NCBI GenBank assembly: GCA_019561615.1
Contig: JAHEQA010000025.1
Location: 1 to 26,196 of the forward strand
Source of the DNA: Methanothermococcus sp. SCGC AD-155-E23
Lineage (GTDB): Archaea; AGJL01; Methanococci; Methanococcales; Methanococcaceae
Length of the DNA stretch: 26,196 nucleotides
Reading direction: 5' to 3'
Part shown: positions 22,729 to 23,454 of the stretch, one piece after another
Position numbering within the stretch: the first letter of the stretch is position 1
Layout of the letters: each line of letters begins with the position of its first letter
Notes under the pieces: generated by a model
Database searches by the model: none
Told to the model about the DNA's origin: nothing
The model's input: the letters and a program-made list of their open reading frames with translations, nothing else
Translations under genes and position numbers: made by a program

Positions 22729-23454
22729 TCACCCTAGAAGTACCTTTAAAACTACAGGTATCCCAACTAACACCATGGCCAGGATAGATCCCAGGATGAC
22801 ACCTAGGAGGGATCTTGACTGTATTCCAGAACTTAACCCTAGGTCCCTTGTCATCAACCCTACCTTGTACTCAAGGGATTCTATAAGTTTTTGTGTAAAC
22901 TCCATATCTGGTTTTGCAACTGTTGGCAATCCCCCCTCTTTTTTCTCCAGGTCTATCTCCTCTGCATCCTCCTCTGTGGCTCCAGGATCTTTAGATATAC
23001 ATTCCTTTATAGCCTGGGTTATCTTATCTATATCCTCTACATCTATTAGGTCTATCACTTCTACTATCTGTCTCTGGAATCTCTCAACTGCATCCTTTCC
23101 AACGTTTTCCAGGAAGGGTATTGCTCCCTTTGCCCCTATGATACATCCGTCGTCTCCAATTCCATTTTCATAGAGGGCCTTGAAACACTGACCTGTAAGA
23201 TGACCCTGTACCTCTGAACCACAGAGTATCATAAACCTTATGTTTGGATTTGAGATGTAGTTTGCAATTACCTTTTCAATTCCAAGGTTCTCAGTATGGC
23301 ATGGACCTGCAATGGCTGCTCCAGCCTCAACTGCAGCCTGTTCCAAACCATGGGATCCTAGTGTAACAACCCCCACACAACTCTCTGGATTTCCCACTAC
23401 ATACTCCCCACTTACAATAGGCCATCCTGGAGCAGGTTCTCTCTTCTCAACCAT
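22729..23454 (-). CDS. mtrA: MtrA-MtrF fusion (corrinoid-binding domain plus MtrF stalk/anchor)
   Basis: Residues 1 to about 170 are the MtrA soluble domain ([32 protein letters not shown] with the His85 cobalt ligand). From about residue 174 (nt 22935) the sequence is MtrF-like (P-x-V-x-KP...[17 protein letters not shown] plus TM). It occupies the mtrF slot, and no separate mtrF is present. Confidence 0.92.

Follow-up and report, generated by a model that had tools for sequence, protein, structure and literature searches.

The window analysed here, a stretch of 26,196 nucleotides from Methanothermococcus sp. SCGC AD-155-E23 (GCA_019561615.1, contig JAHEQA010000025.1, positions 1–26,196 of the forward strand), carries on its minus strand the operon for the Mtr complex of methanogens, in the order mtrE, mtrD, mtrC, mtrB, an open reading frame (ORF) of 106 amino acids (aa), a 241-aa fusion gene, mtrG and mtrH. 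All eight Mtr subunit families were found in their usual order with Pfam and NCBIfam profiles. In contrast to canonical Mtr, the corrinoid domain and the anchor of MtrA lie on separate polypeptides: the domain is joined to MtrF in the 241-aa fusion, and the 106-aa ORF encodes an MtrA tail. The features of the operon, with these two genes first, are listed below together with the evidence for each (TM, transmembrane; dN/dS, ratio of nonsynonymous to synonymous divergence).

22729..23454, minus strand: mtrA-F fusion gene, 241 aa, the sole corrinoid-domain gene (Pfam, NCBIfam, solved structures).
22993..23454, minus strand: predicted corrinoid (cobamide) binding domain, fusion residues 1–154 (Pfam MtrA 2.6e-80; 5l8x 6e-98; dN/dS 0.040).
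23200..23202, minus strand: codon of His85 (in GSEVQGH), expected to be the lower axial ligand of cobalt (translation).
22930..22992, minus strand: KDPGA and acidic linker, fusion residues 155–175 (donor half kept, downstream hydrophobic half lost).
22732..22929, minus strand: MtrF part, fusion residues 176–241, with N-terminal strand, stalk helix and TM segment (Pfam MtrF, TIGR02507, 8q3v_F, 9qtp_P; dN/dS 0.161).
23467..23787, minus strand: tail-only mtrA (mtrA-1 remnant), 106 aa, with MtrA linker, stalk helix and TM anchor (TIGR01111).
23794..23800, minus strand: Shine-Dalgarno-like GGGGGTG, 6 nucleotides (nt) upstream of the start codon (ATG) of the tail-only mtrA (sequence).
23728..23787, minus strand: residues 1–20 of the tail gene, a probable degenerate remnant of the deleted corrinoid domain (dN/dS about 0.5).
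23674..23727, minus strand: Connectase-type motif on the tail, in which Asn-Pro replaces Asp-Pro and the PGA(+13) acceptor half is intact (dN/dS 0.044; motif definition from PMC7980362).
23470..23640, minus strand: MtrA stalk helix and TM anchor, tail residues 50–106, including Phe79 (alignment to 9qtq_A).
25702..26196, minus strand: 3' part of mtrE, cut by the window end (Pfam MtrE 9.3e-58, model positions 134–271 of 271).
24979..25698, minus strand: mtrD (Pfam MtrD 3.9e-89; TIGR01112 2.7e-96).
24147..24959, minus strand: mtrC (Pfam MtrC 9.9e-92).
23814..24137, minus strand: mtrB (Pfam MtrB 5.5e-35).
22485..22724, minus strand: mtrG (Pfam MtrG 2.2e-27).
21510..22478, minus strand: mtrH (Pfam MtrH 1e-148).

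Residues 4–173 of the fusion matched the Pfam MtrA family PF04208 (model positions 1–169 of 173, E 2.6e-80, 268.5 bits, cut-off 25), and residues 1–170 were nearly unchanged from 5l8x, the solved structure of the soluble domain of MtrA (E 6e-98). Its C-terminal part is that of MtrF: residues 175–236 covered all 62 positions of PF09472 (E 3e-17, 62.2 bits, cut-off 22), residues 175–239 the whole of TIGR02507 (model positions 1–65 of 65, E 2.9e-20, 71.7 bits, cut-off 25), and residues 181–239 matched the MtrF chain 8q3v_F (E 1.7e-05) as well as 9qtp_P (about 2e-05). A preliminary description of this DNA had proposed a complete MtrA corrinoid domain, with His85, joined by an acidic linker to an MtrF-type tail; both halves of this proposal were borne out at 22729–23454, where PF09472 and TIGR02507 both exceeded their cut-offs, and the linker quoted there corresponds to fusion residues 161–175. 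The fusion scored 318 bits on the mtrA model TIGR01111 (cut-off 249.15), yet it does not join the domain to an MtrA-type anchor on one polypeptide, as canonical MtrA does. Like MtrF, it has a full-length match to the family above the cut-off, a C-terminal TM segment and a position before mtrG. The conserved His of GSEVQGH is residue 85 of the translated fusion, and the lower cobalt ligand is named as His85 in M. mazei MtrA (PMC12774963) and as HisA84 in M. marburgensis MtrA (PMC10998594). The fusion thus carries an MtrA corrinoid domain with a putative lower-ligand His, and is predicted to bind cobamide.

The 106-aa ORF matched positions 139–238 of the 238 in TIGR01111 (E 5.6e-25, 88.3 bits, below the cut-off of 249.15) and aligned with MtrA residues 142–237 in the solved complexes 9qtq_A and 8q3v_A. 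Because only the C-terminal part of the mtrA model is matched, the ORF represents an MtrA tail without corrinoid domain. In the alignment to 9qtq_A (hand count), Phe79 of the ORF falls on Phe210 of M. mazei MtrA, the residue which, together with the segment A:177–210, has been described for the M. mazei stalk and which shuts the stalk vestibule (PMC12774963).

We searched 40 Methanococcales species genomes with TIGR01111, a survey confined to this order. A fusion together with a tail-only match was found in seven genomes, namely the window's own assembly (G000) and G002, G004, G005, G008, G009 and G011, in frames of 106–136 aa that match the model from position 133–150. Two full mtrA copies were present in 12 genomes and one canonical copy in 14, one genome (G015) had fusion and tail on separate contigs, that of the tail being 513 bases long, one (G022) had the fusion only, and five, with a completeness of 54–89%, gave no match. 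ORF-by-ORF maps of 29 of the 40 genomes agreed with the profile survey, the seven sharing the order mtrB, tail-only mtrA, mtrA-F, mtrG. Four loci with the tail-only arrangement were also retrieved from a contig library; all are titled Methanothermococcus, three are metagenome-assembled genomes (MAGs), and they are probably identical with four of the seven genomes. In a tree of MtrB, the MtrF part, MtrG, the MtrA tail and the corrinoid domain (29 rows, 506 columns), the seven genomes formed one clade with a support of 100/100, nested in a group of 14 rows (100/100) that otherwise comprised six two-copy genomes and one canonical genome. The tail-only arrangement is therefore that of one clade of hydrothermal-vent organisms; mcrA adjoins the mtr operon, which marks them as methanogens.

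Two further loci of the survey are recorded here as separate observations. G012 (L021), which bears the same genus label as the window, has its mtr genes inside the subclade of another family (with G024–G028, 100/100), and this may be an operon transfer or a taxonomy issue. Locus L046, the end of a contig titled Bacteroidales MAG, holds a Methanococcales-type mtrA, a fusion in two frames (117 and 151 aa), mtrG and mtrH, and is almost certainly a bin contamination.

In the whole G000 assembly, a MAG of 1,043,924 bases in 51 contigs that is 86% complete, PF04208 gave two matches, the fusion and, weakly, the tail-only ORF, and the fusion was the single match of PF09472. Neither a second full corrinoid domain nor a full-length anchored mtrA was found in this PF04208 search of the assembly. 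The fusion had previously been described as the sole corrinoid domain in the interval from mtrE to mtrH, and it is likewise the only one found in G000. When the search was extended to relatives with the same operon, G005 (one contig, 99% complete) and G004 (five contigs, 99%) each showed a single full MtrA domain; an extra 15-bit match in G005 sits where the window has a prefoldin gene. An assembly or binning artefact, or a full mtrA in the missing 14% of the MAG, might give a similar picture, since G000 is incomplete and fragmented and identical tandem repeats do break assemblies, as seen in G015. We regard this as extremely improbable. The two 99% complete genomes show the same arrangement, the seven genomes have diverged from each other (synonymous divergence dS of about 1), and contigs from vent metagenomes bridge both the mtrB/tail junction (X3, X4, X7 and X11; three studies, one of which may also be the source of the window) and the tail/fusion junction (X3 and X7; two studies), with no alternative joints seen at these junctions among the vent metagenome contigs. 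Moreover, the tail would be lost in a repeat collapse, whereas here it is the domain that is missing.

All seven tail-only genomes carry a Shine-Dalgarno-like sequence (GGGGGTG, GGAGGTG or AGAGGTG) between the mtrB stop codon and the ATG of the tail, and the tail genes retain the M-x-D start and the native Shine-Dalgarno sequence of mtrA-1. The reading frame is intact in the seven genomes and in ten clusters of database proteins. Median pairwise dN/dS among the seven genomes (dS about 1; 15–21 of 21 pairs usable, depending on the region) was 0.047 for the 86 conserved codons of the tail gene (16 of 21 pairs), with 0.076 for the stalk helix and 0.025 for the TM segment, compared with 0.505 for the N-terminal stump. 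The fusion showed 0.040 in the corrinoid domain and 0.161 in the MtrF part, and the values for MtrB and MtrG were 0.095 and 0.097, respectively. Both genes are under purifying selection, and by these substitution patterns the tail is a maintained gene and not debris, the stump alone decaying. If the 106-aa ORF were instead the functionless, decaying remnant of a pseudogene, the complex would have to do without an MtrA helix. The near-neutral first 20 codons fit such a remnant, but the other 86 are more constrained than MtrB and MtrG, their ribosome-binding sequence, start codon and frame have been kept throughout the clade, and the MtrA helix forms the stalk core in both solved complexes.

In a representative library of 1.84 billion proteins, in which full-length Methanococcales MtrA is hidden behind cluster representatives, just 16 proteins reached an E-value of 0.001 with the tail, and two of them belong to this clade. 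Relatives of 58–186 aa, sought with a word index among 5.8 billion proteins, formed 11 clusters, ten of which are the tail-only form with 71–90% identity to that of the window, while the eleventh (P0011) is a fragment of a full-length gene. Short MtrA-like matches from other lineages (P0012–P0024) were considered as further domain-less tails, and none was counted. P0016 is the C-terminal part of P0017 starting from an internal Met, which shows that some short matches are contig-edge fragments, and the short matches that reach the linker motif keep K/R-D-P-G-A, except for P0021 (N-N-P-G-P, His loop kept) and P0024, which has no such motif. The latter is an MtrA-like protein of 162 aa with a stalk/TM tail that also lacks the His loop.

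Methanococcales operons with mtrA-1 followed by an mtrA-F fusion are known, with MtrA domains that are homogenised by gene conversion (Wang et al. 2015, PMC4632066), and the ten mtrA-2a orthologs reported there all lie beside a normal mtrA-1. This agrees with the earlier statement that MtrA-MtrF fusions of this order normally accompany a full mtrA. The two domains were 99.2–100% identical in DNA over 510 nt in seven of eight two-copy genomes, and the identical tract ended at codon 167–176. G014 (L031), in which the two copies were just 88.4% identical over 510 nt, represents a lapse in gene conversion. As a further observation on these operons, free MtrF in some canonical operons (L019:2238-2471 in G003, L016:2243-2482 in G019 and L017:2240-2482 in G020) has a Gly/Glu-rich N-terminal extension resembling the spacer of two-copy fusions, and some 'canonical' operons may have arisen the other way round, by loss of the domain from the fusion.

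A trace of the lost domain was detected in G002 and G008, the basal pair of the tail-only clade. The first 23 residues of the G002 tail align to MtrA residues 1–24 with a score of 51, compared with 21.3 ± 3.7 for shuffled sequences and reached by none of 2000 shuffles, and the first 21–23 residues of the G008 tail align to the MtrA N-terminus with a score reached by 36–39 of 2000. Since both genes carry a KDPGA-type linker motif and the basal tails keep a second domain N-terminus, two copies would once have existed. These data, the nested position of the clade, the N-terminal remnant in G002 and the second linker motif, support the path of duplication, fusion and loss of the original domain that had been suggested in the preliminary description. 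In the ancestor, mtrA-1 (domain and MtrA tail) would have been followed by mtrA-F (an identical domain and MtrF), and an in-frame internal deletion of roughly residues 25–135 of mtrA-1 would have left the ribosome-binding site and start codon in place, after which the stump eroded. The alternative that the domain was transposed directly out of a canonical operon, with no two-copy stage in between, was rejected because the tail gene keeps its own domain N-terminus and linker motif.

A tail-sparing deletion was fixed in the clade even though recombination between the identical copies, which deletes the tail together with one domain, is the easier route. That the easier, tail-removing outcome is seen only in G022 and the rarer, tail-sparing one was fixed argues that the tail is needed. 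G022 (L039, G022:C1:1045500-1056500, 4101-6905) is a closed genome of one contig from a sister family, in which mtrE-D-C-B is followed by a second, partial mtrC (residues 76–269), a second mtrB, the fusion, mtrG and mtrH. No MtrA tail was found anywhere in the G022 genome, and the duplication beside the fusion comprises 887 bp of mtrC and mtrB in a 100% identical tandem. If true, this arrangement would show that the MtrA helix is dispensable, and it would speak for a functionless 106-aa ORF in the window clade. However, G022 looks like a collapsed repeat, and as proof of a dispensable tail it was set aside as a probable repeat collapse or mis-join. In G015 (L035 = G015:C2:1-513; L010), the tail is stranded with part of the domain on the 513-base contig and the operon contig runs from mtrB directly into the fusion, showing how identical tandem domains break short-read assemblies. 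Taking the constraint on the 86 codons together with these two genomes, we consider a decaying remnant very improbable.

The explanation that we favour, and consider probable, is that the cobamide domain of MtrA was relocated at the gene level to the N-terminus of MtrF, with a tail-only MtrA retained and the domain working on MtrF. The 106-aa protein would still supply the central stalk helix and the TM anchor of MtrA, and the fusion would supply the MtrF stalk helix and the sole methyl-carrying corrinoid domain, which, on its acidic linker of 16 residues, would swing from MtrH to the MtrCDE cavity and back. By hand count, the distance from PGA to the MtrF N-terminus (L-P-T-V) is 16 residues in the window, 19 in G002 and 29 in the two-copy genome G006, and in the MtrA tail 24 residues lie between PGA and its helix. 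The C-terminal helices of MtrA form the core of the cytoplasmic stalk (PMC12774963, PMC10998594), MtrA-c, B, F and G have their N-termini at the tip of this stalk, projecting into the cytoplasm, and the N-terminal segments of MtrA and MtrF make up a short beta-sheet unit (PMC10998594). Because the two segments pair at the stalk tip, the origin of the tether would move by about one strand, and we infer that the hand-over could thus be tolerated.

The linker of MtrA is also the site of a ligase, Connectase, of which MtrA is the physiological and only known target and whose recognition sequence this linker holds (PMC7980362, PMC11961121). Connectase uses (5)KDPGA(10) as donor and N-terminal PGA(10–15) as acceptor, its binding is carried by the ten residues after KDPGA, and in known species its recombination products would be indistinguishable from the educts (PMC7980362). 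G000 encodes a Connectase of 292 aa with an M-S start (G000:C36; PF09894 4.7e-64, PF25274 8.1e-31), and the enzyme was found in 38 of the 40 Methanococcales genomes, including six of the seven tail-only genomes. On the tail, the motif reads E-N-P-G-A followed by 13 residues, with Asn in place of Asp in all seven genomes and all ten database clusters, among which it is invariant save for I/L/F after PGA and E/D. Of its 18 codons, three change the residue, 14 show synonymous variation only and one has the same DNA throughout, resulting in a dN/dS of 0.044. The PGA is internal here, behind a 22-residue leader that ends in E-N. The fusion keeps KDPGA (as S-K-D-P-G-A) with the five residues before it, and five of the 12 positions after PGA match the consensus (hand count); its hydrophobic strand (M-I-L or similar) is changed to E-E-I in all seven clade members, whereas it is kept in all eight aligned fusions outside the clade (seven two-copy genomes and G022). 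A six-frame translation of all of G000 contained two [KRED][DN]PGA sites only, those of the tail and the fusion. Because the linker motif is selected on a tail without domain, we read its function as belonging to the MtrA tail or to Connectase acting there, and not to the corrinoid domain. The enzyme may join the domain to the tail again, may simply dock at the motif, or may be kept out by the changes in the two proteins.

This distribution of the motif allows for a different reading, in which the domain is re-tethered after translation. Connectase would cut the domain from the fusion between KD and PGA and ligate it to the MtrA tail, once the 22-residue leader has been removed at Asn-Pro, so that either canonical MtrA is re-made or the domain equilibrates between the anchors of MtrA and MtrF. 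Connectase recombines (5)KDPGA(10) with N-terminal PGA(10), MtrA being its physiological target (PMC7980362). A full-length Connectase is retained in G000 and across six of the seven clade genomes, the tail motif is under purifying selection, and no other such site besides tail and fusion occurs in G000. Asn-Pro bonds can cleave spontaneously, and cleavage at this bond would expose a Pro-Gly-Ala acceptor. A predicted complex of Connectase with fusion residues 135–200 and, as partner, tail residues 1–60 scored 0.59, compared with 0.02 for the best of three controls. This lends weak support: 51 of 78 solved complexes attained this mark, as did 2 of 108 mismatched pairs, and scores of 0.60 or below comprised five of the 78 solved complexes and all four mismatches that passed. 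The prediction runs agreed in at least 47% of contacts with a partner pLDDT (predicted local distance difference test) of at least 45, and, as a like complex has been solved, the pass may reflect that known structure. In contrast, the half-site on the fusion has lost its hydrophobic strand throughout the clade, and since binding depends on the ten residues that follow KDPGA, the fusion may serve Connectase poorly as a donor. The Pro of the tail is internal with Asn at P1, a position for which no data on Asn were present in the literature passages covered, and both motif changes can equally well be read as resistance to Connectase. We therefore judge a post-translational joining of the separately encoded domain and tail by Connectase, or a shuttling of the domain between the MtrF and MtrA anchors, to be unlikely.

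Several points weigh against the relocation of the domain to MtrF as we describe it. No RNA run was found to contain the stretch of the operon at 22400–24300, and with G000 just 86% complete, the absence of another corrinoid domain leans on the relatives. In the window itself, the 20-residue leader can no longer be recognised as MtrA, its alignment score being reached by 1178–1185 of 2000 shuffles, and the same loss of recognisability applies to five of the seven tail-only genomes, window included. The backbone of the 14-row group is a polytomy that does not single out a sister of the tail-only clade, and a two-copy ancestor is for this reason favoured by parsimony rather than demonstrated. 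A purely structural role of the tail leaves the conservation of its motif and the retention of Connectase unexplained, and the domain may be moved after translation. For the earlier claim that the methyl carrier is tethered to a different stalk helix, this means that it is shown for the genes and stays a prediction for the protein, since Connectase and an acceptor-type motif on the tail are both retained. Relocation with domain-on-MtrF catalysis and an assembled tail nonetheless remains our preferred reading.

The fusion itself is already known in its architecture. Compared with the mtrA-1/mtrA-2a operons of Methanococcales (PMC4632066), it has the same composition, an MtrA domain on MtrF, and lies in the same place, after the mtrA-1 locus and before mtrG; its MtrF part is 57–66% identical to those of two-copy relatives. 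In contrast to mtrA-2a in the sense of Wang et al. 2015, it does not coexist with a full, homogenised mtrA-1. There is one corrinoid domain instead of two, the domain of mtrA-1 being lost in all seven clade genomes with no template left for gene conversion, and the linker of the clade's fusions is 11–14 alignment columns shorter than in two-copy fusions and has lost the hydrophobic half of KDPGA(10). Canonical mtrEDCBAFGH operons and the solved Mtr complexes (8q3v/8q54 of M. marburgensis, PMC10998594; 9qtq of M. mazei, PMC12774963) agree with the window in subunits, order, His85 and the stalk Phe. The mtrA-G fusions (mtrA-2b) of Methanomicrobiales likewise place a duplicated MtrA domain on another single-span stalk subunit, but their partner is MtrG and, by the published description used for this comparison, they are reported only beside an intact mtrA-1 (PMC4632066). 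As in the Connectase-MtrA system of Fuchs et al. 2021 (PMC7980362), the enzyme is present and both mtr products carry parts of the recognition sequence, but the window splits the site over two proteins, with KDPGA and a degraded (10) on the fusion and E-N for K-D plus an intact PGA(13) on the tail. In Wang et al. 2015 (PMC4632066), the terms 'truncat', 'deletion' and 'pseudogen' do not occur in the main text, and a domain-less tail is not among the MtrA, MtrF, MtrG or soluble C-terminal variants listed in the Discussion of Fuchs et al. 2021 (PMC7980362). In the literature searched, including the main texts of these two papers, we did not find the loss of the mtrA-1 domain combined with a tail-only subunit that is kept under selection and bears one half of a Connectase site.

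Outside the operon, the window contains at 20644–20952 (minus strand) a lone ORF of 102 aa that matches positions 43–122 of 145 only of the model for the Na+/H+ antiporter subunit MnhE. Its neighbours are a helix-turn-helix gene (20264–20647) and the prefoldin gene (21044–21490).

In hydrogenotrophic methanogenesis, energy is conserved at the Mtr step only, by a mechanism that needs a corrinoid domain swinging on a tether between MtrH and MtrCDE. The clade described here would represent a natural deletion experiment on the tethering of this domain, in which the MtrA-tethered copy is dispensable when an MtrF-tethered copy exists, but the MtrA stalk helix is not. The latter could explain the essentiality of mtrA-1 in a two-copy species, which is said, by way of Wang et al. 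2015 citing Sarmiento et al. 2013, to have been observed. Unlike in known species, the products of Connectase would differ here in mass and sequence, making the question of re-tethering testable by mass spectrometry. If such a reaction does take place, it would be the first physiological reaction of Connectase with distinguishable substrates and products and would reveal the purpose of the enzyme.

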